Assembly (NCBI GenBank): GCA_027484125.1 | Contig: JAIXUI010000074.1 | Location: 63,791 to 127,790 of the forward strand | DNA length: 64,000 bases | Source of the DNA: Bacteroidota bacterium | Lineage (GTDB): Bacteria > Bacteroidota > Bacteroidia > UBA7662 > JAIXUI01 | Reading direction: 5' to 3' | Part shown: piece by piece, positions 13,470 to 38,313 of the stretch | Layout: the number at the start of each line of letters is the position of its first letter | Numbering within the stretch: the first letter of the stretch is position 1 | Notes under the pieces: generated by a model | Database searches by the model: none | What the model saw: the letters and a program-made list of their open reading frames with translations, nothing else | What the model was told of the DNA's origin: nothing | Program-made: the position numbers and the translations under genes

Positions 13470-14075
13470 ATGCGTGCACAGGTTTATTTTCATCATTGTC
13501 ACACCTTATCCGATGCGCGGTTTGCTGCGGCTGAAGGCTTCGAATTTCTGGCATTTGCTATTGACCCTTCATGGGCCAGCTTTCCGGGAATGGCTAAGCT
13601 TAAAGAAATTTCCGGTTGGGTGAGTGGGCCCCGTTTAGTTGGGCAATTTCCTGCCGGAACCCCTGTTTCAGTTATTCATGATGCAGTAAATTTTCTTGGG
13701 CTGGAAGCCGTTGAGCTTGCGCATCCTATAGAATCTTCCTTACGCGAAAAGCTAGATTTACCGATCATTGTTCGTGTCCCATGGGAGCTACCGTCGGATG
13801 TAGCTTCGGCCTACTTGCAAGAAAGTATGCTTGTGCTTTTGGAAAGTGATATGCCGTTTCACCTTTTGGCTCAAATGCCTCATGCATCTGAATTTCAAGC
13901 GCTTTGTCAACAATACGACATGATTCTCTCTTGTAATTTCAATCCAGAAAATTTAACACAGGCACTTGAAGATTGGGCCCCTTATGGAATTGCCTTACAT
14001 GGAGGTGAAGAAGAAAGACCAGGTTGGTACAATTACGAACAATTACAAGAGATCACCGAAATTTTGGCAAGTTAA
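13470..14075 (+). CDS. phosphoribosylanthranilate isomerase (TrpF)-like TIM-barrel protein, orphan
   Basis: The alignment pattern MRAQVYFHHCHTLSDARFAAAEGFEFLAFAIDPS...VGQFP...LGLEAVELAHPIESS...VLLESD resembles TrpF. The ORF track starts at GTG 13443; ATG 13470 is preferred here. No other trp genes are nearby. Confidence 0.35.
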   Translation: MRAQVYFHHCHTLSDARFAAAEGFEFLAFAIDPSWASFPGMAKLKEISGWVSGPRLVGQFPAGTPVSVIHDAVNFLGLEAVELAHPIESSLREKLDLPIIVRVPWELPSDVASAYLQESMLVLLESDMPFHLLAQMPHASEFQALCQQYDMILSCNFNPENLTQALEDWAPYGIALHGGEEERPGWYNYEQLQEITEILAS

Positions 14076-14182
14076 CCTAGATGCAGCATACAGCATCTTT
14101 TATCAGAAACCAGCAAGCGCGGTAGGTGCTTATTCCAATTTGAGCTTAAACTCTTCAGCACATCCCCTTAGATCACCTCAAA

Positions 14183-14926
14183 ATGAAGCGCCGTCCAGCT
14201 CCCAAATTCTTTAGCGAATACCATTATGAAAGGAAAATGGTAGCAGATGCGGTACGGTTAGGGGCCATGTTTCCCAATATATGGATGAGCTTTCAACTTG
14301 ACGTAACTGGATTAGTAGAGGTACATCAGCAAAAGAAACTCAAGCAGGAAAGTCCAGGTCTGCCTGCTTACTTTTTATTAGCTACAGCAAGGATACTTAG
14401 TGAGCACCGTGGTTTTATTGGTCACATAAGCGGCGAAAAAATAAAGCTGCCAGCAAATGTTAGAATGCGAATAACCAGTAGAAATGTTTTAGGCCGAATG
14501 GTTAGTCATATTCTTACGAATCCTCAAGAGCTAGAAGTGTCATCTATCAAGGCAACCTTAAATTGGCTACTGGCTACAGAGGATGAATTGATTTTACCGC
14601 GTCAAAAGCGGTTTTTCTCGCTGCCATGGTGGTTAAGAAAGGTATTCTACAAATTTTGGTTACGCTCAGCTGAAAAAAGAGACTTGATTTTCGGCAATTG
14701 TTATTTCGCTTGCAATGGATTTTCTTCGCTAAGTGGCTCCTTTACAACCCATACGAACAGTTTATGGGGAGTACACCTCTATTATTCAGATGTTTATAAC
14801 AAGGATGAACGATACTTTGTAACCCTTTCTGTGTCAGCCGATCACCGAATGTTGGATGCCTATCACCTTACTTTTCTAGCTGAATGTTTGGAGATAGAAT
14901 TCCATAAAATTGCGCAGGAATCCTAA
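14183..14926 (+). CDS. hypothetical protein with a 2-oxoacid dehydrogenase acyltransferase (E2/CAT-like) catalytic-domain signature
   Basis: The C-terminal ...SVSADHRMLDAYHL... resembles the DHRxxDG catalytic motif of E2/CAT-fold acyltransferases. There is no lipoyl domain. Confidence 0.35.
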   Translation: MKRRPAPKFFSEYHYERKMVADAVRLGAMFPNIWMSFQLDVTGLVEVHQQKKLKQESPGLPAYFLLATARILSEHRGFIGHISGEKIKLPANVRMRITSRNVLGRMVSHILTNPQELEVSSIKATLNWLLATEDELILPRQKRFFSLPWWLRKVFYKFWLRSAEKRDLIFGNCYFACNGFSSLSGSFTTHTNSLWGVHLYYSDVYNKDERYFVTLSVSADHRMLDAYHLTFLAECLEIEFHKIAQES

Positions 14927-15073
14927 GAATATGGGTATTCTGATTCAACCACTTTAATAATTTGAAACGAACAGAGCCCTACTAAAGTCAAGAAATTAAC
15001 CCAACTCATTAACGAAAATTCTTCAAAGCAAACACCACTCTGCCATTTGGCAGAATCAACTATAAGTTAAACG

Positions 15074-16117
15074 TTAATCGACATTGACTGACGAGTCGTT
15101 TTCGTTCATCACCTTTGAAGCGCTAATCAAGTCGAGTTTACATTGATTGAATAACTCAACCCATGTTTCAGAATTTTCCAAGCCAGAAATGGCTGGAATA
15201 AAATCATTGATATCGTTAAGCAGTTGTTCCAATTGCTTATGGATGGTTCTACTTTCCTCTGAATTAATTTCTTGTAGCAATTTGCGAGTTAAAAGTAGCT
15301 CTTGTTCCACTTTCTTTCTATCGGTAATATCAAACAACATGCAATGGGTTTGCAGTTGATTTGTTTCTATATTTTGAACTGCACGACCAGCAAGTACCAC
15401 CTGCTTCACAAGGCCATCGGCGCGTTTTAATGGCACCTCGCAAACGATAGAACCATTAGACAGTAAAACTTCAAATTTAGAGGTGAACTGAGCAATTTCT
15501 TCTTCAAGCCAAACCATAGTAAATGGTTCACCTATCAATTGTTTATAAGAATATCCCAACAACTCCGAGAGCGCTTCATTCACGAACAGAAAGCTACCTT
15601 TTTCATTAAGAGACTGATAAGGAATAGGTGCTTTTAGCAACAAATCTCGAAACTTAAATTCGCTATCATAGAGGTTAAGAAATAAGGTGTGTTTATCGGT
15701 TATATCTTGAGTTATTCCTACGGTAAAAAGCGGTTTCCCATTATCATCATACTCCGTTTCACAAATCTGCTCCATGTATTTGATTTCACCATCAGGCAAT
15801 ACAGCTCGATGAGTTAGGCGATAGGGCTTTTTTTCCCTTATCGCGTCGAGGTAGCGATGACGAACCATTTCTCTATCATCAGGGTGTATAAAAGGTAAAA
15901 CACCTTGGTCTTTAATCAAATCATTGGATTCCTCTATTTTGTACAATCGATAGAGTTCCGCAGACATCCATACCTTATTTGCTACCCAGTCATGTTCCCA
16001 TAATCCAGAATAAGTAAACCGTTGAAGCTCTTGCAGTTTTCGCTCAGCATCGAACCAAGCCTCCTCGAGTCGCTTCAATTTTTCTCCTAACACTTCCGAT
16101 GTATTATCTTGATTCAT
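15074..16117 (-). CDS. PAS domain protein (N-terminal coiled coil plus two PAS-like domains, no recognisable output domain)
   Basis: 347-aa ORF. The PAS pattern (...WEHDWVANKVWMSAELYRLYKIE...) is repeated twice. Confidence 0.65.
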   Translation of the reverse strand: MNQDNTSEVLGEKLKRLEEAWFDAERKLQELQRFTYSGLWEHDWVANKVWMSAELYRLYKIEESNDLIKDQGVLPFIHPDDREMVRHRYLDAIREKKPYRLTHRAVLPDGEIKYMEQICETEYDDNGKPLFTVGITQDITDKHTLFLNLYDSEFKFRDLLLKAPIPYQSLNEKGSFLFVNEALSELLGYSYKQLIGEPFTMVWLEEEIAQFTSKFEVLLSNGSIVCEVPLKRADGLVKQVVLAGRAVQNIETNQLQTHCMLFDITDRKKVEQELLLTRKLLQEINSEESRTIHKQLEQLLNDINDFIPAISGLENSETWVELFNQCKLDLISASKVMNENDSSVNVD

Positions 16118-16130
16118 GGCGATACTTTAA

Positions 16131-17162
16131 TCAAACCTTAGTTTTTACTGAACTGCATTTATTAACAATGCGATGAATTGAAGTATCGAGATTCAGTAGG
16201 TCAACTTGAATCTTGTCTGCCAGTGAAATTTGAGCTTTATTTAAACTCAATTCTTCTTTTACAAGGGGTAAAATTCCCAACAAATTAGTTACCGGGTGAC
16301 GAAGAATATGCGACTGGCTCCAAGCTATATCTAAAAGTCGCTGATTTTGTTCCTTAATTTTCTCCTGATGGGTATTGATGTAAGTGATATCTAGCAAAAT
16401 TCCATGAAATTCATCAATCTGATGAAGACTTGAAGTGTAACGTTTCACAGTCATTGCCACGATAATCGGCCCCAACTTTGGCCTAACCAAAGTAAAATCG
16501 GCAGTTAGCTCTTCCGCATTTTTCGAATTAGCAATGCTCTTTTTGAAAGCTTCAACTTGATCTTTATTGAGAAATTGATGAAAATGCTTGCCTACAAGTG
16601 ATTCTGACGACTCCCCAATCAACTCGCAAAATCTTTCATTAACCATCGTTATCCTGCATTCTTGGTCAAAACTTACATAAGCTAATGGAGCTTTCGCTAC
16701 CATATCTTGAAACCGATTCGCACTTTCCTCGATTAGTTGAATGGCATTTTGCTTTTCAGTAATATCCTGGCAAGTTCCTATCGAGTACATAGGCTTACCA
16801 TCTGCATTAAAACGTGTTTCACAATGCTCTTCTACAAAACGAATTGAACCGTCATTAAGTACAATGCGATGAACGATGTTGTAGGTGGCTCTACTGTCTA
16901 AAGAATAAAGATAAGCCTTCTTTACTCGCTCCACTTCGTCTTCCGGAATACATGCAAGAAAGGAGGCAAAGCTAGGCTGAAACTCGAGCGGATCTTTCCC
17001 AAAGATTTTGTATATCTCTGAAGACCACCAAAGCTTGTTCTTGACCAAATCAAACTCCCATATTCCGGCTTTGGCAAACTGCTGCAAAACCTGCGTCTTT
17101 CGTTCCGTGTCATGCAAGGCCTGCTCTAAACGAGATATTCTTTCTTGCACCAAATGAAGCAT
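16131..17162 (-). CDS. PAS domain protein, tandem paralog; C-terminal HisKA-like H-box-like segment without ATPase domain
   Basis: 343-aa ORF with the same N-terminal coiled coil and PAS organisation as the neighbouring gene (...IWEFDLVKNKLWWSSEIYKIFG...). The C-terminus (...AWSQSHILRHPVTNLLGI...) resembles a histidine-kinase dimerisation box. Confidence 0.65.
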   Translation of the reverse strand: MLHLVQERISRLEQALHDTERKTQVLQQFAKAGIWEFDLVKNKLWWSSEIYKIFGKDPLEFQPSFASFLACIPEDEVERVKKAYLYSLDSRATYNIVHRIVLNDGSIRFVEEHCETRFNADGKPMYSIGTCQDITEKQNAIQLIEESANRFQDMVAKAPLAYVSFDQECRITMVNERFCELIGESSESLVGKHFHQFLNKDQVEAFKKSIANSKNAEELTADFTLVRPKLGPIIVAMTVKRYTSSLHQIDEFHGILLDITYINTHQEKIKEQNQRLLDIAWSQSHILRHPVTNLLGILPLVKEELSLNKAQISLADKIQVDLLNLDTSIHRIVNKCSSVKTKV

Positions 17163-17920
17163 GTATATTGAATTAAAAGGCCAAAGTATAACCTACTTGT
17201 TTAACTTTCTCAACCCCTATGTTACTTATTGACCAACCGGCACCTTTATTATGCTTTTTTAAGAACTTATCAACAAATATTCCATGAATTTTTTATGCTC
17301 AAGTTCTTTTTATTTTAATTATCTCATAAATGGTATTTTTTCCATTTATTGATAATAATTAAACGAAGTTTTAAGCCGCCTCTACCAAAAACTTTTCTGA
17401 CACAAATTGCCTTAAAATGACTGTTTGAAACATTTTAAACCGAAATAACTATTTTATGTTTAATTATTTAAATATTTCAATAATTATAAATCGCCTAATT
17501 TTTTTGTTTTTACTTAATTATTTATGTTTTTAAATAGCACAATATTCCATCGGCTACTCTGCAAAAATACAGATATGAATTTTCTATATATTTGATAAAA
17601 CAATATGTATAACACCCGTAGCTACTCAGGTTTATACGTTTCCTCGTCAATGATATCCACTTTCATTGAGGCATTCCAAGTTCAAGCCAGGCTACAGCCA
17701 GCCATTCAACCATTAAATTGATTGAAAAAAAGTATATGAAACCACCCTATGCGTATGATTTTAAGACGCCTGTGTCAGTTTCATTAAGCACATTCCACAA
17801 AAATACGTACGGGATAGCAAGGCTAGAAGGAGCTGGTAATGCACAAACTAAGGAAGGTTGTCAAAGATTCAATCACACTAAAGACGCCCTTCTTCATGGT
17901 GATGACCAACGTGACTTAAC

Positions 17921-17950
17921 AAAAAAGGCTGCCTGTGGCAGCCTTTTTTT
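17921..17950. terminator. bidirectional intrinsic terminator (serves the gldH-like gene on the minus strand)
   Basis: aaaaaaggctgcc-tgt-ggcagccttttttt: a 7-bp GC stem flanked by A6 and T7. The minus-gene stop codon lies at 17950-17952. Confidence 0.75.
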
Positions 17951-18426
17951 CACTTTGACATCAACTTGGCCTCAAAGCCAACATCCTCAATGCCGAGTAA
18001 TGGATTGTCACGCATGTTTTGTTCTATTTCAAGCGTATAGGTGCCTGCCATAGGAAGTGTCCAGTACGAAGTAAGCCGACTGCGAAGTGTTATGGTAGCT
18101 CCAGACGTTTTTCCAAGCCATTGACCATTTTCATCAGCCAATTGAAGACTAACACGAAATCGCTGTATGCGGCCATTGGGTTGCTTAAGCCTGAGCATCA
18201 AATACAGATTCTCATAGGCATAATCATCAGCATGGCGCAGCTGAAGTGTAATCTGCACTTTCTTGTTGGGCTCAGTTACAACCAGCTCATGAGAAACTCG
18301 TTGGTTCCAGTTCCACTTTTCATCTTCTATCGACTCAAACACCTGTGCCAGTTGATTAGGGTCACGGTTACAGGCAGTGAGGGAAACAAACAGGCCAAGA
18401 CTTAGAGAAAACACCAGTTTACGCAT
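17950..18426 (-). CDS. gldH: gliding motility lipoprotein GldH-like
   Basis: Trimmed to the Met of MRKLVFSLSLGLFVSLTAC (lipobox; ATG at 18424-18426), giving a 158-aa lipoprotein. It overlaps the stop of the upstream PSP1 gene by 8 nt. A PSP1-gldH arrangement is, as I recall, conserved in gliding Bacteroidota. Confidence 0.55.
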   Translation of the reverse strand: MRKLVFSLSLGLFVSLTACNRDPNQLAQVFESIEDEKWNWNQRVSHELVVTEPNKKVQITLQLRHADDYAYENLYLMLRLKQPNGRIQRFRVSLQLADENGQWLGKTSGATITLRSRLTSYWTLPMAGTYTLEIEQNMRDNPLLGIEDVGFEAKLMSK

Positions 18427-27488: not shown

Positions 27489-30302
27489 ATGAAGCAGGAG
27501 CCCACCCTTGACGTTCTCGGAGCCCGGGAACACAATCTCAAAAACATCGATTTGAGCCTCCCAAGGGAGAAACTCATTGTACTTACAGGCCTTAGTGGCA
27601 GCGGAAAATCATCCCTGGCATTTGACACCATCTATGCCGAAGGCCAACGCCGCTACATGGAGAGTTTTTCGGCTTATGCCCGTCAGTTTATAGGCGGAAT
27701 GGAGCGCCCCGACGTGGATAAAGTTGAAGGACTAAGCCCCGTCATCTCCATAGAACAAAAAACCACCAGCAGAAACCCCCGCTCCACCGTAGGCACCATC
27801 ACCGAGATCTACGACTTCCTTCGCTTACTCTACGCACGCGCCTCGGACGCTTATTCCTACGCCACCGGCAAACCCATGATCCGCCTCAGCGATGACCAGA
27901 TCATGCATCACCTACTTCAGCATTACAACGGCAAAAAAGTCATCATCCTCGCGCCCCTCGTGCGGGCAAGAAAAGGACACTACCGCGAACTCTTTGCCCA
28001 GCTCTTGAAAAACGGCTTCTCCAAAGTTCGTGTGGATGGCGAAATCCGGGAGTTGACCTCTAAAATGCAGGTAGATCGTTATCAAACCCACGATATCGAA
28101 CTCGTCATCGACCGCCTCGAAGTGGATGAAGCCTCAAAAACCCGCATGTCGCAGTCGATACAGGCAGGGATGAAACAAGGCAAAGGCGTCATCCTGATTC
28201 AAGACTACGAAACCGGCGAACTGTCCTTCTTCTCCAAGTTCCTCATGGATGCAGAAAGCGGCATCGCCTACGACGAGCCTCAACCTAACACCTTCTCCTT
28301 CAACTCTCCTTACGGCGCTTGCCCCAACTGCGAAGGCTTAGGCGAAATAGGCGAAGTGGACCCCCAGCTTATCGTTCCGGACCCCACCAAATCGGTGCAT
28401 GGCGGCGCCATTGCGCCCTTGGGAGAATACCGCGACATCTGGTTCTTCCGCATCCTCAAAGCCCTCGCAAAACGACATAAATTCAGTCTATCGGTTCCAT
28501 TTTCTTCCTACAGCGAGGAAGTGCGCAACCTCATTTTCCATGGTCACGACGAGCCCCTACTGATGGAATCGAATACCGGAAGCTCCTATCACCATGTATT
28601 CGAAGGCATCATCAACGTACTCCGTAAAAATCTGCATGAACCCGGTAGCGAAAATCTCCAGGAATGGGCCGAAGAATTCGTTACACGGGTTGAATGTCCG
28701 GAATGCCAGGGCAATCGGCTAAAGAAGGAAGCCCTGCATTTTAAAATCGACGGAAAAAACATCTCCGAGCTTGCTCGCATGGAACTTTCCACCTTGCAAA
28801 CATGGATGCAGGGGCTAGAATCGCGGATGAGCGAGCGGCAGCAGCTTATCGGAGCTGAAATTCTCAAGGAAATCCGTAAGCGACTCGGCTTCCTCCTCGA
28901 CATCGGTCTTGCCTACCTCGATTTGAACCGACCCTCCGGCACCCTGTCGGGAGGCGAAGCCCAGCGAATCCGCTTGGCTACCCAGATAGGCTCACAACTC
29001 GTAGGCGTACTCTACATCCTCGACGAACCCAGCATTGGCTTGCACCAGCGCGACAACAGCCGCTTAATTGGTTCACTTAAGCAGCTCCGCGACCTGGGCA
29101 ACACCGTTTTGGTAGTAGAACACGACAAAGACATGATTCTTGAAAGCGACTACGTGGTGGACATTGGACCAGGCGCTGGCCTTTATGGCGGGCAAGTAGT
29201 GGCCCAAGGCACGCCAGAGCAGTTTATGAAGCAGGATTCCCTCACCGCCCGCTACCTCAGCGGCGCAATGGAAATCCCTATTCCCGCCGAGCGCCGCGCC
29301 GGCAGTGGCCAATTCCTGCATTTACACGGTGCAAGCGGCCATAACCTACGCAACGTTAGCGTGCGCTTTCCGCTCGGCACCCTCATCGCCATAACGGGCG
29401 TTTCCGGTTCTGGGAAGTCAAGCTTAGTAACAGAAACCCTCTATCCCATCCTGCGACAACACTTCTACCACAGCCGCCAGAAACCTTTGCCCTACGAAAA
29501 GCTGGAAGGGATGGCGTGGGTGGATAAAGTCATAGAGATAGATCAGGCTCCGATTGGGCGAACACCCCGTTCCAATGCCGCTACTTACACAGGGGTCTTC
29601 AACGACATTCGCGCCTTATTTGCCGAGCTACCCGAAGCCAAAATCCGCGGTTATAAACCAGGGCGTTTTTCCTTCAATGTAAAAGGCGGAAGGTGTGAAA
29701 CTTGCGGCGGCGCCGGGGTGCGCGTGGTGGAGATGAACTTCTTGCCCGACGTGGAAGTAAACTGCGAAGACTGCCAAGGTAAACGATACAACCGCGAAAC
29801 CCTGGAGTTGCGCTACAAAGGCAAGAGCATCGCTGACGTACTCAACATGCCCATCAGCGAAGCCGTCAGTTTCTTCGCCCATGTGCCTGCTATTGTACGG
29901 AAAATCGACACCCTCAACAGCGTGGGCCTCGGCTACCTCACCCTCGGACAGAGCTCCACCACCCTTTCCGGAGGTGAAGCCCAGCGCGTGAAACTGGCCA
30001 CTGAGCTCAGCAAGCGCGACACCGGCAAAACCTTCTACATCCTCGACGAGCCTACCACCGGATTGCACTTCGAAGACATCCGCATTCTGATGGAAGTACT
30101 GCAACGCTTGGTAGATCGCGGCAATACCGTACTCATCATCGAGCACAACCTCGACGTCATCAAAGTGGCCGATCACGTCATCGACATGGGGCCCGAAGGC
30201 GGGAAAGAAGGCGGAATGGTGGTGTTTGAAGGCACCCCGGAAGGCCTATGTGAGCATCCGGGAAGCTTCACCGGGCATTTTCTCAAGCTGGAAATGCAGT
30301 AG
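27489..30302 (+). CDS. uvrA: excinuclease ABC subunit UvrA
   Basis: 937-aa ORF with two ABC ATPase modules (GLSGSGKSSLAFDT... and GVSGSGKSSLV...) and zinc-finger CxxC pairs. Confidence 0.95.
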   Translation: MKQEPTLDVLGAREHNLKNIDLSLPREKLIVLTGLSGSGKSSLAFDTIYAEGQRRYMESFSAYARQFIGGMERPDVDKVEGLSPVISIEQKTTSRNPRSTVGTITEIYDFLRLLYARASDAYSYATGKPMIRLSDDQIMHHLLQHYNGKKVIILAPLVRARKGHYRELFAQLLKNGFSKVRVDGEIRELTSKMQVDRYQTHDIELVIDRLEVDEASKTRMSQSIQAGMKQGKGVILIQDYETGELSFFSKFLMDAESGIAYDEPQPNTFSFNSPYGACPNCEGLGEIGEVDPQLIVPDPTKSVHGGAIAPLGEYRDIWFFRILKALAKRHKFSLSVPFSSYSEEVRNLIFHGHDEPLLMESNTGSSYHHVFEGIINVLRKNLHEPGSENLQEWAEEFVTRVECPECQGNRLKKEALHFKIDGKNISELARMELSTLQTWMQGLESRMSERQQLIGAEILKEIRKRLGFLLDIGLAYLDLNRPSGTLSGGEAQRIRLATQIGSQLVGVLYILDEPSIGLHQRDNSRLIGSLKQLRDLGNTVLVVEHDKDMILESDYVVDIGPGAGLYGGQVVAQGTPEQFMKQDSLTARYLSGAMEIPIPAERRAGSGQFLHLHGASGHNLRNVSVRFPLGTLIAITGVSGSGKSSLVTETLYPILRQHFYHSRQKPLPYEKLEGMAWVDKVIEIDQAPIGRTPRSNAATYTGVFNDIRALFAELPEAKIRGYKPGRFSFNVKGGRCETCGGAGVRVVEMNFLPDVEVNCEDCQGKRYNRETLELRYKGKSIADVLNMPISEAVSFFAHVPAIVRKIDTLNSVGLGYLTLGQSSTTLSGGEAQRVKLATELSKRDTGKTFYILDEPTTGLHFEDIRILMEVLQRLVDRGNTVLIIEHNLDVIKVADHVIDMGPEGGKEGGMVVFEGTPEGLCEHPGSFTGHFLKLEMQ

Positions 30303-30310
30303 GGGGAGTA

Positions 30311-30660
30311 TCACCAAGTGCACTACGGTGTCACCAAGCACACGAGGTAGAATTGAATAGCTTTTATAAAAACCTAGTGCTCCTTGTGAAACCCTAGAGA
30401 ACCTTGTGATAACCCCGCGCGCCGTGTTTCACCAAGGACACAGGGAACGTCACAAAATACACGAGATAGAATTAATTAGCTTTTATAAAAACTTAGTGCT
30501 CCTTGTGAAACCCTTAGAGAACCTTGTGATAACCCCGCGCGCCGTGTATCACCAAGCACACGAGGTAGAATTGAATAGCTTTTATAAAAACCTAGTGCTC
30601 CTTGTGAAAACCTAGAGAGCTTTGTGATAACCCCGCGCTACGTGTATCTTGGGAATAGAT
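30311..30660. repeat. tandem direct repeat, about 3.3 copies of a 98-119-nt unit, between uvrA and the exonuclease gene
   Basis: The unit is tcaccaagcacacgaggtagaattgaatagcttttataaaaacctagtgctccttgtgaaaccctagagaaccttgtgataaccccgcgcgccgtgt. Copies lie at about 30331-30428, 30429-30547 (with a 20-nt insertion) and 30548-30647, with a partial copy at 30311-30330. Copies 1 and 3 are near-identical. Confidence 0.85.
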
Positions 30661-30682
30661 ATCAAATAACCGCAAAATAACG

Positions 30683-31159
30683 ATGGAGGTAAACAGGTTT
30701 ACAGCCTTTGATGTAGAGACTGCGACAAATGAGTCGAGCAGTATCTGCCAGATTGGAATCGTAGTTTACGAAGACGGCGAGGAGTTTTACCATTTCCAAT
30801 CGAAGGTGCAGCCACCCGGCAATCGCTACCATTGGAACAACATCCGTGTTCACGGCATAGAACCACGCCAAACCCTCCACAGTCCAACCTTTGGCGAAAT
30901 ATATCCCAACATCCGGCAATTCTTCGAAGGACAAAACGTAGTAGCCCATAATATCCCCTTCGATAAGCGCTGCCTCGCTAAAACCCTTCAATACTACGGC
31001 CTTGAAACACCGAGTTTCACCTCATACTGCACCTACAAACTCTACCGAAAGAAACTCTCCGAACTCGCCACCGACTACGGAATCTCCCTCCAGCACCATG
31101 ACGCCCTCAGCGACGCCAGAGCCTGCGCCGAACTATTTACTCGGTGGTTAAAGCGGTAA
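30683..31159 (+). CDS. DEDDh-family 3'-5' exonuclease (DnaQ/epsilon-like domain, stand-alone)
   Basis: Exo I motif FDVETA, Exo II VAHNIPFDKRCL and Exo III HHDALSDARACAELF. Confidence 0.8.
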   Translation: MEVNRFTAFDVETATNESSSICQIGIVVYEDGEEFYHFQSKVQPPGNRYHWNNIRVHGIEPRQTLHSPTFGEIYPNIRQFFEGQNVVAHNIPFDKRCLAKTLQYYGLETPSFTSYCTYKLYRKKLSELATDYGISLQHHDALSDARACAELFTRWLKR

Positions 31160-31231
31160 GGGTGGGGATAACTTTAGCAAGACCATTTAGCAAGAAATCG
31201 ATCTTCCATAAACATTCGAATATAAGAAACT

Positions 31232-34200
31232 ATGAATCAAGGCATTTACGAAGAGCTAGTGACAAAATTGGTAGCTCAAAAAATAAATGAATTAGATAAA
31301 AACGCATATCATATCAATAAAACAAAGATTGATAAGGCAGAAGCCTCTATTATTCTAGCCAAGCATTTATCAAGCACCATAAAACGAGCTTTAGAACTAG
31401 TTAGTGGCGAAAATCAATTAGAGCTACAAATAGCCATTGCGAATAAAATTATTCAGTTCTTAAAAGAGGAACTACACAAAGAAGATTTCACAAACGATTT
31501 AATTGAGGTAGAAGGCGAACTATTAAAAGCTGTTTTCACCAAAGTAGACGCCTTTTTTTCTGATTTTGAATTGCATCTTAAAGAAATTACTCCCTATACA
31601 AGACTCACGCACAGTGAACTATTTACGGGAGGAAACGTGGGATTATCACTAGAAAGTGAGTTAAAAAAAGAAATTCTATCTGCAAATAGAATAGACTTTC
31701 TTGTATCATTTATCAAATTTAAAGGAATTATTATTCTCGAAAAGGAACTACAAGAGTTTACTAAACGAGGCGGAAAACTTCGTGTAATTACGACAACCTA
31801 CATGGGTGCTTCTGATTACAAAGCAATTCAATTGCTTTCAAAAATGGAAAACACCGAAGTGAAAATTTCTTATAACACAGGAAACGAACGACTTCATGCA
31901 AAAGCTTATTTGTTTTACCGAGAAACAGGATTTCATACTGGATATATTGGTTCATCGAACTTTTCCAGGTCTGCACTTACGGATGGTTTAGAATGGAATA
32001 TAAAAATTACCACCAAGGAAGTCAGCCATATTATTGACAAATTCCAGAAAACGTTTGACTCCTATTGGCAGAGTGATGACTTTGAAATTTTTGACGATTC
32101 TCTTCACAAAGAGAAATTAGTTGCTTCTTTAAATCAAGGTAAAATTTCGAAAACTACGGAAATCAATCACTCCTTTTTTGAAGTAAAACCCTATCCCTTT
32201 CAACTCGAAATTTTAGAGCAACTAGAAGTAGAACGTTCAGTTCATGAAAGAAATAGAAATTTAGTTGTTGCTGCAACAGGTACAGGAAAAACAGTAATTT
32301 CTGCATTTGACTACAAACGTTTTAAGCAAAAAAATAAATCTTCCAAACTTTTATTTTTAGCTCATAGGAAAGAAATCTTAACGCAAGCAATAGCCACATT
32401 TCGAGGTGTATTACGAGACAATAATTTTGGTGAGCTTTGGGTGGATAGAATGGAACCTTCTAATTATGAGTATGTATTTGCCTCTGTTCAAACATTGAAC
32501 AACAGAATTGATAACTTGACTTTAACTCCGGAATATTTCGATTTTATTATAATTGATGAATGTCATCACTTAACCGCAGATACCTATAGGGCTACAATCC
32601 ATTACTTTAAGCCAAAAATTCTTTTAGGATTAACAGCTACTCCAGAAAGAATGGATGGCGGAGATATTCAGGAAGATTTTCATAACAAAATTGCAGCAGA
32701 AATACGTTTGCCAGAAGCTTTAAACAGAAAACTTCTTTGTCCTTTTCAATATTTTGGCATATCAGATAGCATTGATTTATCCAATGTTGATTGGGAAAGA
32801 GGAAGATATGTAGCTAGTCAGTTAACCAATATTTATACGGCAAATGACAGAAGAGTAAGTGAAATCATTCAAGCGCTTGAAAAGTACACCAAAGACTCCA
32901 CAGATGTTCGGGCGCTAGGTTTTTGTGTTTCAATAGAACATGCCAAATTTATGGCAGAAAAATTTTCACTTGCAGGTTTTAAAACAGACTATTTAACCAG
33001 TGCCAATAATGAAAATAGAGAATCAATAAGAAGTAAATTGCTGAACAAGGAAATTAACTACTTATTTGTTGTGGATATTTTTAATGAAGGGGTAGATATT
33101 CCGGAAATTGATACTGTATTGTTCTTAAGACCCACAGAAAGTTTAACCATTTTCTTACAACAGCTCGGAAGAGGACTTAGGTTGGCAGAAAACAAAGACT
33201 GTCTTACAGTATTAGATTTTGTAGGTAATGCAAGACCTGAATATAACTTTGAAAATAAATTTAGGGCTTTAATTGGCAAAACCACAACGACCGTACATAA
33301 AGAAGTTGAGGATAATTTTCCTCACTTGCCACTAGGATGTTCTATTGTATTAGAAAAAAAGGCAAAAGAAATTATTTTAGAAAATATTAAATCTGCCACA
33401 ACGCTGAATCGAAATCAGATTATCAGTAAAATCAAGAATTTCAAGCACCAAACCACATTACCACTTACCTTAAAAAACTTTATAGAGTTCAATAACCTTA
33501 CAATTCAAGCCCTATACAAAAGAGGCTCTTGGAAAAGATTGTGTCAAGAGGCGGGAGTTATTGACAATTTTGAGTCAGTCAACGAAAAAGAAATTTATTC
33601 TGCTATTTCCAATAAATGGCTATCTACGAGTTCAACCAGTTATTTCAAATTCATTCTAAAGCTAGCAACGTATAATTTTCAAGTCAGTGTTTCTGACTTA
33701 AATTCCAAAGAAAGAACGATGCTATTGATGCTTCATTACGATGTTTGGCAAAAAGCAGGAGGTTTTGATTCGATTGAAGAAAGTATTAGAGCCATTGGTA
33801 AAAACAAGGTTTTTGTGGAGGAAATGATTGAAGTTCTTGAAATATTAGAAGACAAAATCGATTTCAAAGAAATTGACATTCAACTCCCTTACCATCAGCC
33901 CTTAAAAGTTCATGCTCGATACACAAGAGATCAAATTTTGTCGGCGTTTGGATTTAGTACCTTCGATAGAAAATCCTCAAGCCGAGAAGGCGTTGCAGAA
34001 AATACTGATTTAAACACTGAATTATTATTCATCAACTTGATAAAATCAGAGGAAAACTTTTCTCCTACCACCATGTATGACGATTACGCCATCAACGAAT
34101 ACTTGTTTCATTGGCAAAGTCAAAATACGGCTGGACCTGAAACTCCAAAAGGGTTATCATACATCAAACATCAGGAAAACAAAAAGAAAATACTGTTATT

Positions 34201-34372
34201 CATAAGAGAAAAAACTAAGGACGAGCACGGAAATACAATGGGATATGTGTTCGTTGGAGAAGGTAATCTCCAAGAATACTATGGAGCAAAACCGATGAAT
34301 ATTAAATGGAAGCTTAGCGTACCTTTACCACATTATTTGTGGAATGATGCTGCCAAATTGAGGGTTGGTTGA
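31232..34372 (+). CDS. PLD-family nuclease – SF2 (ResIII-type) helicase – DUF3427 fusion protein; SauUSI-like putative modification-dependent (type IV) restriction endonuclease
   Basis: 1046-aa ORF. Single HKD motif HAKAYLFYRETGFHTGYIGSSNFS. Helicase motif I AATGTGKT, motif II IIIDECHH, motif III LTATP and motif VI QQLGRGLR. The C-terminal 350 aa are DUF3427-like. GC is about 33-35% against about 48% in the flanks. Confidence 0.75.
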   Translation: MNQGIYEELVTKLVAQKINELDKNAYHINKTKIDKAEASIILAKHLSSTIKRALELVSGENQLELQIAIANKIIQFLKEELHKEDFTNDLIEVEGELLKAVFTKVDAFFSDFELHLKEITPYTRLTHSELFTGGNVGLSLESELKKEILSANRIDFLVSFIKFKGIIILEKELQEFTKRGGKLRVITTTYMGASDYKAIQLLSKMENTEVKISYNTGNERLHAKAYLFYRETGFHTGYIGSSNFSRSALTDGLEWNIKITTKEVSHIIDKFQKTFDSYWQSDDFEIFDDSLHKEKLVASLNQGKISKTTEINHSFFEVKPYPFQLEILEQLEVERSVHERNRNLVVAATGTGKTVISAFDYKRFKQKNKSSKLLFLAHRKEILTQAIATFRGVLRDNNFGELWVDRMEPSNYEYVFASVQTLNNRIDNLTLTPEYFDFIIIDECHHLTADTYRATIHYFKPKILLGLTATPERMDGGDIQEDFHNKIAAEIRLPEALNRKLLCPFQYFGISDSIDLSNVDWERGRYVASQLTNIYTANDRRVSEIIQALEKYTKDSTDVRALGFCVSIEHAKFMAEKFSLAGFKTDYLTSANNENRESIRSKLLNKEINYLFVVDIFNEGVDIPEIDTVLFLRPTESLTIFLQQLGRGLRLAENKDCLTVLDFVGNARPEYNFENKFRALIGKTTTTVHKEVEDNFPHLPLGCSIVLEKKAKEIILENIKSATTLNRNQIISKIKNFKHQTTLPLTLKNFIEFNNLTIQALYKRGSWKRLCQEAGVIDNFESVNEKEIYSAISNKWLSTSSTSYFKFILKLATYNFQVSVSDLNSKERTMLLMLHYDVWQKAGGFDSIEESIRAIGKNKVFVEEMIEVLEILEDKIDFKEIDIQLPYHQPLKVHARYTRDQILSAFGFSTFDRKSSSREGVAENTDLNTELLFINLIKSEENFSPTTMYDDYAINEYLFHWQSQNTAGPETPKGLSYIKHQENKKKILLFIREKTKDEHGNTMGYVFVGEGNLQEYYGAKPMNIKWKLSVPLPHYLWNDAAKLRVG

Positions 34373-34432
34373 GAGGGTGGCTGTGTAGGTTGACCCAAAA
34401 AACCTTTACCTCGTTTAGTTGTTTTGTTGCCT

Positions 34433-34954
34433 ATGGCAGAGCCGCTGGTGATTTTGGTTGATGAGCATGACCGCCCTACGGGGACTATGGGAAAGATGGA
34501 AGCCCATGAGAAAGGGGTGCTACATCGGGCGTTCTCGGTGTTTGTCATCAATAACCAGGGCGAATGGCTCATGCAGCAACGCGCTTTCTCTAAATACCAT
34601 TCCCCCGGCCTCTGGACGAATGCTTGTTGTAGCCACCCTGCTCCGGGCGAGACCGTGCAGGAAGCCGCAGTACGAAGGATGCAAGAAGAGTTAGGAATTG
34701 CTATTGAAGCACCAGAAACTTTGTTCACTTTCCAATATCAAGTGGAGTTCAACAACGGCTTGTTCGAACATGAACTTGATCATGTACTGCTTTGCAGGCT
34801 GCCGGCGCAGGAGTTTAACCTCAACGAAGAAGAAGTAGCCTCCGTAAACTGGCTATCCTCAACTGCAATTGCTGAACAATTAGAACAGCATCCAGAACAT
34901 TTCACCCACTGGTTCCGCTTGGTGTTTGATCGAGTTCGCGAACTTATAGGCTAA
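34433..34954 (+). CDS. idi: isopentenyl-diphosphate delta-isomerase, type 1 (Nudix family)
   Basis: ...GVLHRAFSVFVINNQGEWLMQQRAFSKYHSPGLWTNACCSHP...EE... The ORF track starts at TTG 34424; ATG 34433 is preferred here. Confidence 0.85.
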   Translation: MAEPLVILVDEHDRPTGTMGKMEAHEKGVLHRAFSVFVINNQGEWLMQQRAFSKYHSPGLWTNACCSHPAPGETVQEAAVRRMQEELGIAIEAPETLFTFQYQVEFNNGLFEHELDHVLLCRLPAQEFNLNEEEVASVNWLSSTAIAEQLEQHPEHFTHWFRLVFDRVRELIG

Positions 34955-35247: not shown

Positions 35248-36678
35248 ATGAAAAAACTTTTTACCCTCCTACTTCTTGTAACCGCCGGACTATCGGCTTC
35301 TGCCTCCCACTTGATGGGTGGTCAGATTCATGCTCGTCAAATCCCGGGTACGGCTTTAACTTACGAAGTAACCATCCGCCTGTTTCGTGATGTACTAGGT
35401 ATTAATATGTCGGCCCCACAACTAAGGGTATATAGCGGCAATAGTACCCAATACACCAGCAGCATGACCACACTGGCAGGCTCAGGCATCGTCAATGGCT
35501 TTCAGTATCCTACGGAGTGGTATGTTTACAAAGATACCATCACCTTCGCGGCTCCTGGTCAATACAGACTGGCGTACAACGAGTGCTGCCGAAATGCAGC
35601 CATTGTGAATGCAGGCAATAGCCAAACCATGTTCCTTGAAACCAACTTGACGGTTTTTCCCAATGGAACATTCAATTCCAGCCCTGAATTCCTGTTAGAT
35701 CCAGTAGGCTTTGTGCCTCTCAACCAACAGTGGCTCAGCAATCCATTAGCATTCGACGCAGATGGCGATTCACTCGTTTTTAGAATTGACACACCTTTCG
35801 CAAACTTGAATGCCAATGTGACCAACTATGTATTTCCTGCGTCAGCAGCTGGCGGCTTGCTCAATGTTAATTCCTTCACCGGAGAAATCCGCTGGACACC
35901 TTCTACAGTAGGCAACTACATCTTCTCTTATGTGGTAGATGAATACCGCAATGGACAGTTGATTGGTAGCGTAGTGCGTGATTACCAGTACGTGGTGATG
36001 ATGTCGAGCAATACACCTCCTGTGCCTTTAGCTACTTCTGTCAACGGGCCAGTTATCAGCACAGTAAACGGCGTTACTACCGCAAACTTCCCAGCGGGCC
36101 AAGCAGGTTCTATCACACTTACCTACACCGACAACAACAACGACAGCTTAGTGATGCAGGCATTTGGCCGCCACTTCCTTCCCGGAAGCAGCTTGCCAGC
36201 CAACTTCAACTTTGTCCAACTAGACGCACAACCTGGCGTTAGCACCACACGTTTTGTTCGAGGCACCCTCAACTGGACACCTTCGGCTATCGCCAATGAC
36301 CCAGCAAACGACTGGACCTGTGTGTTCCGTGTGTCAGATGTTACCAATGGCATCCGTTTCTTCCGCGATGAAACCATGCTCATTCGTGCAACTACTACCA
36401 CCAGTGTCAACAACCCAAGCCTCTCTCCTCTAAGTCTTTATCCTAATCCGGCGTCAAGTGGCAACTGGAATATGGGCTTCAGCTTGAATGAGCAAGCGAA
36501 TATTCGGGTTAGAATCGCAGACCTTCAAGGCCGTTTGCTCCACAATGACTATTATGGAAACTACCCTGTAGGCCAACACCTGATTGTTCGTCAGGACGCC
36601 TTGCCACAAGGTTTGTATCTGGTAGAACTAGAAGCTAATGGACAAGTTATTGCCAAAGAGAAACTGCTGATTAAGTAA
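35248..36678 (+). CDS. secreted protein of unknown function with C-terminal T9SS (Por_Secre_tail) sorting domain
   Basis: Signal peptide MKKLFTLLLLVTAGLSASA. The C-terminus (...LSLYPNPASSGNWNMGF...GLYLVELEANGQVIAKEKLLIK) matches the T9SS type A tail. Confidence 0.7.
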   Translation: MKKLFTLLLLVTAGLSASASHLMGGQIHARQIPGTALTYEVTIRLFRDVLGINMSAPQLRVYSGNSTQYTSSMTTLAGSGIVNGFQYPTEWYVYKDTITFAAPGQYRLAYNECCRNAAIVNAGNSQTMFLETNLTVFPNGTFNSSPEFLLDPVGFVPLNQQWLSNPLAFDADGDSLVFRIDTPFANLNANVTNYVFPASAAGGLLNVNSFTGEIRWTPSTVGNYIFSYVVDEYRNGQLIGSVVRDYQYVVMMSSNTPPVPLATSVNGPVISTVNGVTTANFPAGQAGSITLTYTDNNNDSLVMQAFGRHFLPGSSLPANFNFVQLDAQPGVSTTRFVRGTLNWTPSAIANDPANDWTCVFRVSDVTNGIRFFRDETMLIRATTTTSVNNPSLSPLSLYPNPASSGNWNMGFSLNEQANIRVRIADLQGRLLHNDYYGNYPVGQHLIVRQDALPQGLYLVELEANGQVIAKEKLLIK

Positions 36679-36703
36679 GAAGCTTCCCATTGATTTCATT
36701 TCG

Positions 36704-36737
36704 AAAAAGGTCTGATGTTATCCATCAGACCTTTTTT
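36704..36737. terminator. bidirectional intrinsic terminator between convergent genes
   Basis: aaaaa-ggtctgatg-ttatc-catcagacc-tttttt: a 9-bp stem flanked by A5 and T6. Confidence 0.75.
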
Positions 36738-37581
36738 ATTGGAAGAAAATGCGAGCTTCCACTGGATAATGATCCGAAAGTTGGCGTCCGTTGCTTCTTT
36801 TGGGTTGAATGACGTGATATGAATGGGTGATAAAACCGCGAGTGAGGATAAAATCGATGAGTTTATGCCGGGCTTTTGGCCAGGTAAAGCCATTGAAGGT
36901 TGGAGTAGTATCCAGGGAAGGACGTGTTTCAGTTAGGCCGCCTTCGCGAAGTATTTTTAGCGGTTGCTCGTGATATTCACAGTTGAAGTCACCCATTACA
37001 ATTACCGGCTGAGCTTGTTGGCGCACCCAAGCTGCAAGCTGTCTGGCCGACTCTGCTCGTGCTTTCACCCCTATATGGTCAAAGTGAGTGTTGAGTACCA
37101 AGAAGATTTTCTTGTTTTCCTTAAGTTTAACCCAGCTAGCGATGCGTGGCAGTGCAGCATCCCAACCTTTATTGGGAAAGTTGGGCTGCTCTGAAAGCCA
37201 AAAAGTGCCGGAGTCTAAGAGACTAAAACGGTCAGTTCGCCAATAAATGGCTGCGTGTTCACCGGCAGTTTGTCCATCATCGCGCCCACGGCTGTAGCGG
37301 GAATAGCCTTGCATCACGATATCTAAAAATTGGAGTTGAGAATTAAGTGCTTCTTGAACCCCTAAAATATCGGGTGCTTCACAAGAGGCATAGAGCCCTT
37401 TTCCCATCAGGAAACTGCCTACCTCAGCCCTTCTTTCCTTCCAAGCATCCTGCCCATCCGCTGGATTGTCGTAGCGAAGGTTGTAGGTCATCACATGAAG
37501 AGCTTGGAGCGTATTTTGGCTGTTTGCAACAGAAGTCAAAAGAGAAAATAAGAAGGCCAACAGTAAAGAATAAAGTTTCAC
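36736..37581 (-). CDS. secreted endonuclease/exonuclease/phosphatase (EEP) family protein
   Basis: Signal peptide. EEP motifs (...VMTYNLRYD..., ...NTHFDH..., ...GDFNC..., ...SDHYPV...). The start is GTG at 37579-37581. Confidence 0.8.
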   Translation of the reverse strand: MKLYSLLLAFLFSLLTSVANSQNTLQALHVMTYNLRYDNPADGQDAWKERRAEVGSFLMGKGLYASCEAPDILGVQEALNSQLQFLDIVMQGYSRYSRGRDDGQTAGEHAAIYWRTDRFSLLDSGTFWLSEQPNFPNKGWDAALPRIASWVKLKENKKIFLVLNTHFDHIGVKARAESARQLAAWVRQQAQPVIVMGDFNCEYHEQPLKILREGGLTETRPSLDTTPTFNGFTWPKARHKLIDFILTRGFITHSYHVIQPKRSNGRQLSDHYPVEARIFFQ

Positions 37582-37721
37582 ACTGAAAATTAAGGAACTG
37601 ACGCATTATTAAAGAATTGACAAGTCTGCAAACAACCATTCCAATAAATATTTGTAAAAAAGGCCCTTGCAAAATTTTAAGTAAAAACTAAATTTGTATC
37701 CAATTGAATACAATTTCACCA

Positions 37722-38021
37722 ATGTTCTTTATTGAGAAAACCTATGAATTTGATAAATGGCTTAAGAGATTAAGTGACTTACGAGCAAAGGCAAAAATTT
37801 TAATCAGGATACAAAAACTGGAACAAGATGAACACTTTGGAGACTGCAAATCAATAGGTAATGGAATCAGAGAATTGAGGATTGATTTTGGGAAAGGCTA
37901 CAGAGTGTACTTTGTAAAATCAGGTGAAAAGATAATCCTTCTTCTAATTGGCGGAGATAAATCCAGTCAAGAGCAAGACATAAGAAAGGCTAACGAGATT
38001 CTAAAAAAGTTAAATGAATAA
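37722..38021 (+). CDS. type II toxin-antitoxin system toxin, RelE/ParE superfamily (HigB-like; addiction-module killer, HI1419 family)
   Basis: 99 aa: MFFIEKTYEFDKWLKRLSDLRAKAKILIRIQKLEQ...GNGIRELRIDFGKGYRVYF... The ORF track starts at TTG 37704. Confidence 0.72.
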   Translation: MFFIEKTYEFDKWLKRLSDLRAKAKILIRIQKLEQDEHFGDCKSIGNGIRELRIDFGKGYRVYFVKSGEKIILLLIGGDKSSQEQDIRKANEILKKLNE

Positions 38022-38313
38022 AGAAATGGGAACCTCAAAATTTGACATTGCTGATTACTTAGACAGTGAAGCAATGATTGCAGAATACCTCAATGCTGCA
38101 TTAGAAGAGGGAGACGACCGTGCTATTGTAATAGCAATTGGCCATGTGGCTAAAGCTATTGGGATGACGAAAATTGCAGAAGAAACAGGCCTCAGCAGGC
38201 CAAGTTTGTATAAAGCCCTCTCGGAAGGCGCGAAGCCACAATTTTCAACGATTCTTAAAGTGCTTCGAGCAATTGGGGGCGAAATCAGAATTACACCTGT
38301 CTCTGCTTCTTGA
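38014..38313 (+). CDS. addiction-module antidote protein, HigA family (HI1420-type HTH antitoxin)
   Basis: 99 aa with HTH (...MTKIAEETGLSRPSLYKALSEGAKPQFSTILKVLRAIG...). It overlaps the toxin stop by 8 nt. Confidence 0.72.
   Translation: MNKEMGTSKFDIADYLDSEAMIAEYLNAALEEGDDRAIVIAIGHVAKAIGMTKIAEETGLSRPSLYKALSEGAKPQFSTILKVLRAIGGEIRITPVSAS

Follow-up and report, generated by a model that had tools for sequence, protein, structure and literature searches.

A horizontally acquired SauUSI-family restriction endonuclease gene next to idi in a Bacteroidota bacterium

The window analyzed here is a stretch of 64,000 nucleotides (nt) from a Bacteroidota bacterium (GCA_027484125.1, contig JAIXUI010000074.1). 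Between a DEDDh exonuclease gene and idi it carries a complete open reading frame (ORF) of 1046 amino acids (aa), which can be assigned, securely on sequence grounds, to the SauUSI family of type IV restriction endonucleases, that is, enzymes that depend on both DNA modification and ATP. The genes around this restriction endonuclease gene (hereafter REase) are uvrA, the exonuclease gene, idi and a gene for a type IX secretion system (T9SS) protein. A T9SS sorting domain and a gldH neighborhood mark the host as a member of the Bacteroidota. An earlier reading of the same DNA, made without database searches (the sequence-only reading), had located the ORF exactly where it lies, with the exonuclease gene and idi as its neighbors, both of which were recovered by Pfam and NCBIfam models. 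The features of the locus are listed below, with the domain boundaries placed from those published for SauUSI (PMC7913695).

31232..34372, plus strand: complete ORF, 1046 aa, predicted SauUSI-family type IV (modification-dependent, ATP-dependent) restriction endonuclease
31232..31591, plus strand: N-terminal helical extension, aa 1 to about 120, absent from SauUSI
31592..32131, plus strand: single-HKD phospholipase-D-fold (PLD) nuclease domain, aa about 121-300, with H222, K224 and GSSN at 240-243
32132..32182, plus strand: flexible linker between nuclease and motor, aa 301-317
32183..33400, plus strand: superfamily 2 (SF2) DExH helicase-like translocase, aa 318-723, with GTGKT at 350-354, DECH at 442-445, TAT at 468-470 and QQLGRGLR at 643-650
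33401..33910, plus strand: all-helical coupler domain, aa 724-893
33911..34369, plus strand: C-terminal target-recognition domain (TRD) with the DUF3427 core, aa 894-1046
31160..31231, plus strand: AT-rich leader of 72 nt (GC 0.36), from the exonuclease stop codon to the REase ATG
30683..31159, plus strand: DEDDh/RNase_T exonuclease gene, co-oriented with REase, left neighbor
30303-30660: tandem array in the spacer between uvrA and the exonuclease gene, with three units (30328-30430, 30447-30549 and 30546-30648) and flank motifs from 30303
27489..30302: uvrA, to the left of the tandem array
34424..34954: idi (isopentenyl-diphosphate isomerase, NCBIfam equivalog), right neighbor

The REase ORF is intact and contains its domains in the SauUSI order. 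Searches with Pfam returned, all above the gathering score, PLDc_2 (aa 170-279), ResIII (318-473, E 1e-39), Helicase_C (546-651, E 2e-12) and DUF3427 (842-1039, E 7e-28), which confirms the fusion of PLD nuclease, SF2 helicase and DUF3427 that the sequence-only reading had proposed. The motifs on which that proposal was built are all present and start at aa 222 (HAKAYL), 240 (GSSNF), 350 (GTGKT), 442 (DECH), 468 (TATP, for TAT) and 643 (QQLGRGLR, for QxxGRGxR). The single-HKD nuclease retains its catalytic His and Lys, and motifs I, II, III and VI of the SF2 DExH ATPase are intact; loss of the HKD or DECH residues, which the same reading had named as a sign against its proposal, was thus looked for and not found. 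Across 76 full-length homologs (1044-1052 aa), the catalytic His and Lys, GSSN, Walker A, D442, E443 and H445 of motif II, and motif VI are invariant. In an AF2 model built from a diverse alignment of 74 sequences, the sole stretch of at least three residues with pLDDT below 50 is aa 307-315, within the linker, the counterpart of the SauUSI linker 192-220 that was left unbuilt in the crystal structure (PMC7913695). The coupler, with helices at 727-874 in the model, aligns with the SauUSI coupler 618-805 and is, the N-terminal extension aside, the least conserved part of the protein. It is followed by the DUF3427/SRA-like TRD, and the profile alignment to SauUSI is continuous through to SauUSI residue 920.

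Family membership is indicated by several comparisons. The PADLOC model PDLC03659 ‘mREase_IV’ matches REase with 777 bits (E 7e-234), with aa 119-1043 aligned to positions 15-942 of a 945-position model, and this nearly end-to-end match means that standard defense annotation would call the gene type IV. The best sequence match in the PDB is SauUSI (7CLG, E 1.6e-84, query 145-1000 to chain 45-905), and the same entry is the top match of a profile made from 74 diverse relatives (E 2e-167, profile 123-1014 to SauUSI 29-920). Whole-chain structural similarity to the SauUSI crystal structure was also observed. When the TRD alone was turned into a profile, it matched only SauUSI, at residues 800-921 (E 2.4e-11). 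The resemblance to SauUSI claimed by the sequence-only reading is borne out by these matches, and so is its description of DUF3427 as an SRA-like reader, since an SRA-like fold of the SauUSI TRD was reported in the crystal structure paper (PMC7913695). Taken together, REase is a further member of a catalogued kind of defense gene that is already covered by a PADLOC model.

Several known systems share parts of this architecture. SauUSI itself (Staphylococcus aureus, PDB 7CLG; Xu et al., 2011, PMC3141236; Tumuluri et al., 2021, PMC7913695) comes from a Firmicutes host, lacks the N-terminal helical domain of about 120 aa, has M829 and Y831 in the pocket where REase has E919 and V921, and is preceded by a NUDIX gene, whereas REase belongs to a Bacteroidota host and has no such gene. 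The PADLOC entry represents a Bacteroidota-type subfamily; it is a sequence model only, and a literature search gave no experimental data on the mREase_IV subfamily. The DUF3427-PD-(D/E)XK enzymes McaZI, BwiMMI, EfaL9I and YenY4I (Lutz et al., 2019, PMC6765204) have in common with REase the modified-cytosine reader and the defense contexts, but they carry a PD-(D/E)XK nuclease instead of PLD and no helicase motor, and a need for ATP is not expected in them. The restriction motors of CglI/NgoAVII and of the Type I/ISP enzymes (HsdR 3H1T, LlaBIII 4XQK) are the closest structural relatives of the REase helicase core after SauUSI, and CglI/NgoAVII also combines a PLD nuclease with an SF2 translocase. 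However, these systems are multi-subunit or methyltransferase-bearing, they target unmodified specific sequences, and none has a DUF3427 reader.

On the model of SauUSI, for which mechanism and specificity have been described (PMC3141236; PMC7913695; bioRxiv 10.1101/2025.10.16.682607), we infer by analogy how REase would dimerize, translocate with ATP and depend on a modification, and which modification it would read. Two protomers would dimerize via their single-HKD PLD domains and thereby form one joint nuclease active site. The SRA-like TRD would flip a modified cytosine of incoming DNA, most likely 5-methylcytosine (5mC) or 5-hydroxymethylcytosine (5hmC), into a pocket made of F933, I934, D951 and W961. 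Recognition would then activate the DExH motor, which is expected to hydrolyze ATP and to translocate directionally along double-stranded DNA with loop formation, until cleavage occurs, be it at a distal modified site, at a DNA end or at sequences that the nuclease prefers. Repeated cycles of cleavage would shred the DNA, and host DNA would be spared because the modification is presumably absent there in the recognized context. In keeping with such a solitary enzyme, tblastn revealed no C5-methyltransferase-like sequence within the 64-kb window.

Judged from the domains, motifs and end-to-end homology, REase very probably functions as a modification-dependent restriction enzyme of the SauUSI type. 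Some points weigh against this assignment of function. The identity between REase and SauUSI is just about 24-31%. SauUSI has nothing that corresponds to the N-terminal domain of about 120 aa, and REase departs from it at two of the six positions to which a role in forming or plugging the 5mC pocket has been ascribed. The copy in the window has no NUDIX gene upstream and hence lacks whatever promoter drives the two-gene operon of its relatives. The cytosine methyltransferase search was confined to the 64-kb window, and a literature search found no biochemical or genetic test of any member of the Bacteroidota clade.

The pocket itself was compared residue by residue with SauUSI, as the sequence-only reading had suggested. 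Four of the six SauUSI pocket residues are kept (F841 as F933, I842 as I934, D858 as D951 and W868 as W961), and F933, D951 and W961 are invariant across the 76 homologs, but M829 is replaced by E919 and Y831 by V921. In SauUSI, Y831 is the proposed contact of the methyl group, and M829 takes the place vacated by the flipped base, roles that come from a docking model and not from a DNA complex (PMC7913695). With two pocket residues altered, one of them the proposed methyl contact, the substrate of REase may not be 5mC. It is therefore conceivable, if rather unlikely, that the family and the motor-nuclease mechanism are the same, but that the reader of the Bacteroidota clade is tuned to a modification other than the 5mC of SauUSI, such as 5hmC, glucosyl-5hmC, N4-methylcytosine or another hypermodified base, in which case REase would act mainly against phages and would not be a barrier to plasmids with Dcm-type methylation. 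The position of Y831, which is V921 here and V, T, I or A across the clade, and that of M829, which is E919 within a conserved R918-E919-G920 motif, would fit such a change, and the 5hmC phage T4gt is restricted by other DUF3427 enzymes (PMC6765204). A homolog in Moheibacter also lies two genes downstream of a C5-cytosine methyltransferase, and methyltransferase remnants occur upstream in three further loci (L004, L007 and L015), a placement that is awkward for a general 5mC-dependent nuclease. On the other side, the base-contacting D951, the stacking W961 and the hydrophobic wall of F933 and I934 are kept, SauUSI already accepts both 5mC and 5hmC (PMC3141236), the pocket roles rest on docking, and the Moheibacter methyltransferase may simply act in a sequence context that the nuclease ignores.

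The Moheibacter arrangement deserves description in its own right, as a C5 methylase beside a presumed 5mC-dependent nuclease is unexpected. In Moheibacter stercoris (L002:457-6381), the module consists of the C5-cytosine methyltransferase, an 83-aa ORF, a NUDIX gene, REase and an AIPR abortive-infection protein, and IS110 and DDE transposases are found close to it. The remnants in the other three loci are short, correspond to the C-terminus of the methyltransferase and lie upstream of NUDIX (L004:5499-5582, L007:413-526 and L015:2260-2355).

The base composition of REase sets it apart from its surroundings. The ORF has a GC content of 0.339 and a third-position GC content (GC3) of 0.28, and GC is 0.32-0.36 in each 500-nt window from 31250 to 34250, with 0.45-0.56 in both flanks; GC3 is 0.64 in uvrA, 0.60 in the exonuclease gene, 0.53 in idi and 0.50 in the T9SS protein gene. 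The low GC noted by the sequence-only reading was thus confirmed, while its figure of about 48% for the chromosome suits the adjacent genes and is slightly high for the window, the remainder of which has a GC of 0.457. The 120 best database relatives of REase are all 1045-1053 aa in length and 77-100% identical, and among the names of their sources are Moheibacter, Arenibacter, Polaribacter, Psychroflexus, Spirosomataceae, Crocinitomicaceae and Chitinophagales. When one genome was scanned for each species, 80 related loci with identities of 71-90% were obtained; they belong to Flavobacteriales, Cytophagales, Chitinophagales, Sphingobacteriales, Bacteroidales and Saprospirales, and in nearly all of them REase has a GC of 0.28-0.37, even where the flanks reach 0.45-0.56. 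The nearest foreign copies, in Moheibacter stercoris, Saprospira and UBA6161, are 88-90% identical at the amino-acid level, while copies from six Bacteroidota orders stand at 71-83%. Their nucleotide homology to the window (83%) extends from 31225-31231 to 34368-34370, so that it begins 1-7 nt before the ATG and is confined to the ORF.

The immediate relatives of the host give a complementary picture. In contigs of two sister lineages (L171 and L172), idi is followed by the same 476-aa T9SS protein, and REase and the exonuclease gene are both missing. Homology of these contigs to the window starts at 34431, just within idi, upstream of which there is a guanylate cyclase gene in L171 and a gene for a PDDEXK_2 transposase-like protein in L172; other genes follow uvrA in the genome of the latter (L088; UvrA about 90% identical). 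The assemblies of the same species (L001 and L084-L087) carry REase with 99.1-100% protein identity in a 16-kb region that is 99.4% identical at the nucleotide level, and REase is present in every same-species assembly found. Base composition, phylogenetic incongruence and absence from the two sister lineages support well the conclusion that REase was horizontally acquired, as the sequence-only reading had held, and its timing falls between the separation from the sister lineages and the divergence of the sampled strains, with a synteny break as the point of entry.

That REase could instead be an ancestral core gene of the lineage with an unusual base composition is an explanation to which we give almost no credence. 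It would agree with the fact that all same-species assemblies found carry the gene at this locus and with the failure to recover a clean empty site, but two sister lineages that keep the idi-T9SS synteny lack the gene, and REase is 90% identical across orders, whereas idi, with homologs at 85%, 80% and 74% identity in the sister lineages, is at most 59% identical to that of any named taxon beyond them. Nor would an ancestral gene be expected to show a GC3 of 0.28 next to neighbors at 0.50-0.64, or to retain low GC in hosts with flanks of up to 0.45-0.56.

The exact empty site, with uvrA, the exonuclease gene and idi in a row and no REase, was not found, and relatives with these genes directly adjacent, which the sequence-only reading had proposed for comparison, were not recovered. 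Look-ups of exact proteins gave only same-species contigs with REase, one relative contig (L170) ends within the repeat array, a metagenome scan with the exonuclease gave relatives of at most 55% identity that are unlinked to uvrA or idi, and look-ups anchored on idi gave the sister lineages, which have no REase and no exonuclease gene at this position. As the exonuclease gene is missing there too, the junction is to be seen as a synteny breakpoint and not as a clean insertion site. The PDDEXK_2 gene (Rpn family) upstream of idi in one sister lineage (L172:3-569, GCA_943373175.1) is consistent with a breakpoint that is prone to recombination. No integrase or transposase recurs beside REase among the 80 loci, and no close relative was found on plasmids (best about 50% identity) or viral contigs. 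The 7-mer AGGGTGG, which the sequence-only reading had reported at both flanks, does occur on both sides, at 31159-31165 (the earlier position was 31163) and 34374-34380, each within a few bases after a stop codon. However, when the two short intergenic stretches were shuffled, a shared 7-mer arose in 13% of cases, and with flanks of 100 nt it did so in 33%; with a chance probability of 0.13-0.33 it was rejected as evidence of a target-site duplication.

The N-terminal extension sets the protein apart from SauUSI. Residues 1 to about 118 are covered by neither the PADLOC model nor 7CLG and belong to no Pfam family. In the AF2 model, the extension forms helices at 12-20, 38-55, 62-81, 84-89 and 109-119, with block-mean pLDDT values of 86-95 throughout residues 1-120, save for a drop to 67 at 101-110. 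Internal duplication as the source of this domain was considered, and none was found. The extension occurs in most of the nearest clusters at 50% identity (the family comprises 3,383 clusters at E <= 1e-30), and within the close family no variation is seen at G4, Y6 and E7, right at the N-terminus; the extension is thus a subfamily trait, not a peculiarity of the copy in the window. The same holds for the other mildly unusual traits, namely near-identity across orders at low GC (about 30-36%), the lack of visible mobility genes and the two pocket changes, all of which belong to the whole Bacteroidota clade and not to this locus. One could suppose that the clade is a functionally distinct branch of the SauUSI family, in which the N-terminal domain together with the E919/V921 pocket might give another modified-base specificity or a regulatory input, and whose very recent spread across orders could have been driven by strong selection from phages whose DNA is modified, but we hold this to be unlikely.

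Among the 80 loci, the sole widely recurrent neighbor of REase is a MutT/NudG-like NUDIX gene (NCBIfam) of 123-129 aa, which ends at or overlaps the start codon of REase in 55 of the 77 relatives with enough upstream DNA for this test (for example, L004:5633-6001, L003:7618-8004 and L002:1894-2283). All of the copies nearest to that in the window (L004, L002 and L006; 88-90% identity) have this module. Xu et al. (2011; PMC3141236) had already reported that sauUSI, like no fewer than 60 SauUSI-like genes, has a MutT/NUDIX gene beside it, and deletion of nudix in S. aureus did not abolish restriction (Monk et al., 2012; PMC3312211). One idea is that the NUDIX partner clears modified deoxycytidine triphosphate from the nucleotide pool. 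Compared with these two-gene modules, the window has the same REase alone, and neither a NUDIX gene or remnant in the window nor a remnant of the operon promoter in the 72-nt leader was detected. The downstream idi does have a Nudix fold, but this is a coincidence, as the gene is a genuine idi (it scores 175 bits with the NCBIfam equivalog model, whose cutoff is 127) and is shared with sister lineages without REase. Copies without NUDIX are scattered in the family, all are full length, and 10 of the 20 have a nearest relative with NUDIX. The partner has therefore been lost repeatedly in the clade without decay of REase, and the stand-alone state is recurrent and apparently viable.

In relatives, the position of the 72-nt leader is filled by the 3′ end of NUDIX, and the 72 nt have no homolog at any of the 80 loci. 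The -7 element of Bacteroidota promoters has the consensus TAnnTTTG, and the leader carries TAACTTTA at 31169, which matches it at seven of eight positions. We presume that the leader is the site of REase's own promoter and ribosome-binding region. A scan for sigma-70-like promoters, which was not designed for Bacteroidota, gave nothing prominent.

This lack of a prominent promoter, the absence of the NUDIX gene found in 55 of 77 relatives and the mere 72 nt of unrelated sequence before the ATG might suggest that REase is a silent or inactive orphan, which arrived without its partner and operon promoter and persists only because the event was recent. We consider this very unlikely. The ORF is full length with all catalytic motifs intact, it is 99.1-100% conserved in at least five other assemblies with a divergence equal to that of the flanks (99.4% nucleotide identity), and the scattered copies without NUDIX are all intact. 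Moreover, restriction by SauUSI survives nudix deletion (PMC3312211), and read-through transcription is possible because REase lies 72 nt downstream of a co-oriented gene.

That co-oriented gene encodes the DEDDh exonuclease, which PADLOC matches to the Cas-associated DEDDh family (1.4e-26) and to the candidate system PDC-S48 (7e-26). These matches, together with the adjacency, the shared orientation and the distance of 72 nt, are what could be cited for a two-gene defense system in which the exonuclease degrades the fragments made by REase or acts as an effector. However, the exonuclease gene is not a recurrent neighbor in any of the 80 related loci, its relatives elsewhere are unlinked to such an REase, its composition is host-like (GC 0.50, GC3 0.60), unlike that of REase, and the homology to foreign copies ends at the REase ATG, which makes a joint system highly improbable; the reading preferred here remains that of a restriction enzyme acting alone. 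As the exonuclease gene is missing at the corresponding positions of the sister lineages in spite of its host-like composition, it may itself be an accessory gene.

The tandem array described by the sequence-only reading is real, and neither it nor the exonuclease gene could be connected with REase. The unit length is about 100-119 nt, and the copy number differs among strains: the window has three units, L084 and L086 have one each, and L170, whose contig breaks inside the array, has at least three. There is no Rfam match, and two core motifs of the array occur nowhere else in the 64-kb window (0-0.04 chance matches expected). As its copy number varies among strains with the same REase, it was rejected as a part of the system; the array is a minisatellite that varies among strains, unconnected with REase as far as can be seen.

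If REase is active, it would block the transformation of this lineage with DNA from Dcm+ Escherichia coli, and the same block would be expected in many Bacteroidota with near-identical copies. SauUSI does likewise in staphylococci, where the usual remedy is DNA from a dcm-negative host. The locus also shows cleanly, on a small scale, how a defense gene entered a chromosome as hardly more than an ORF, at a synteny breakpoint beside housekeeping genes, and it adds a data point to the linkage of NUDIX and modification-dependent nucleases, which was reported in 2011, in that the partner was lost without decay of the nuclease. Knowledge of type IV restriction is unchanged by it, and its significance is modest and mostly practical.

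Other features were observed in the window. About 3 kb from REase, at 37704-38313, there is a low-GC (0.33-0.41) toxin-antitoxin pair, composed of a Gp49/HigB-like toxin of 105 aa and an HI1420-type helix-turn-helix antitoxin of 99 aa with an 8-nt overlap. It is missing from the sister lineage L171, in which 177 nt stand in place of the 944 nt of the window, and it is a second small acquired module near REase. Comparison of 36674-36751 with L084:15990-19739 revealed that about 3.75 kb present in the sister strains L084 and L085, between the T9SS protein gene and an Exo_endo_phos gene, are missing from the window, namely the genes for HupE_UreJ_2, a DUF3500/T9SS protein and an AraC regulator. 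As HupE_UreJ_2 is found at that position in L171 too, this is probably a deletion in the strain of the window. In a second low-GC stretch (0.34-0.40), at 14000-18000, two similar ORFs that each encode PAS domains lie side by side on the minus strand (15074-16117 and 16131-17162), and there is also a 247-aa ORF (14183-14926) without a Pfam match. Finally, the spacer after the T9SS gene (36691-36742) has a weak Rfam match to the Salmonella small RNA STnc390 (26.9 bits against a gathering score of 50, E 0.024), which is most likely due to chance or to a terminator-like hairpin.

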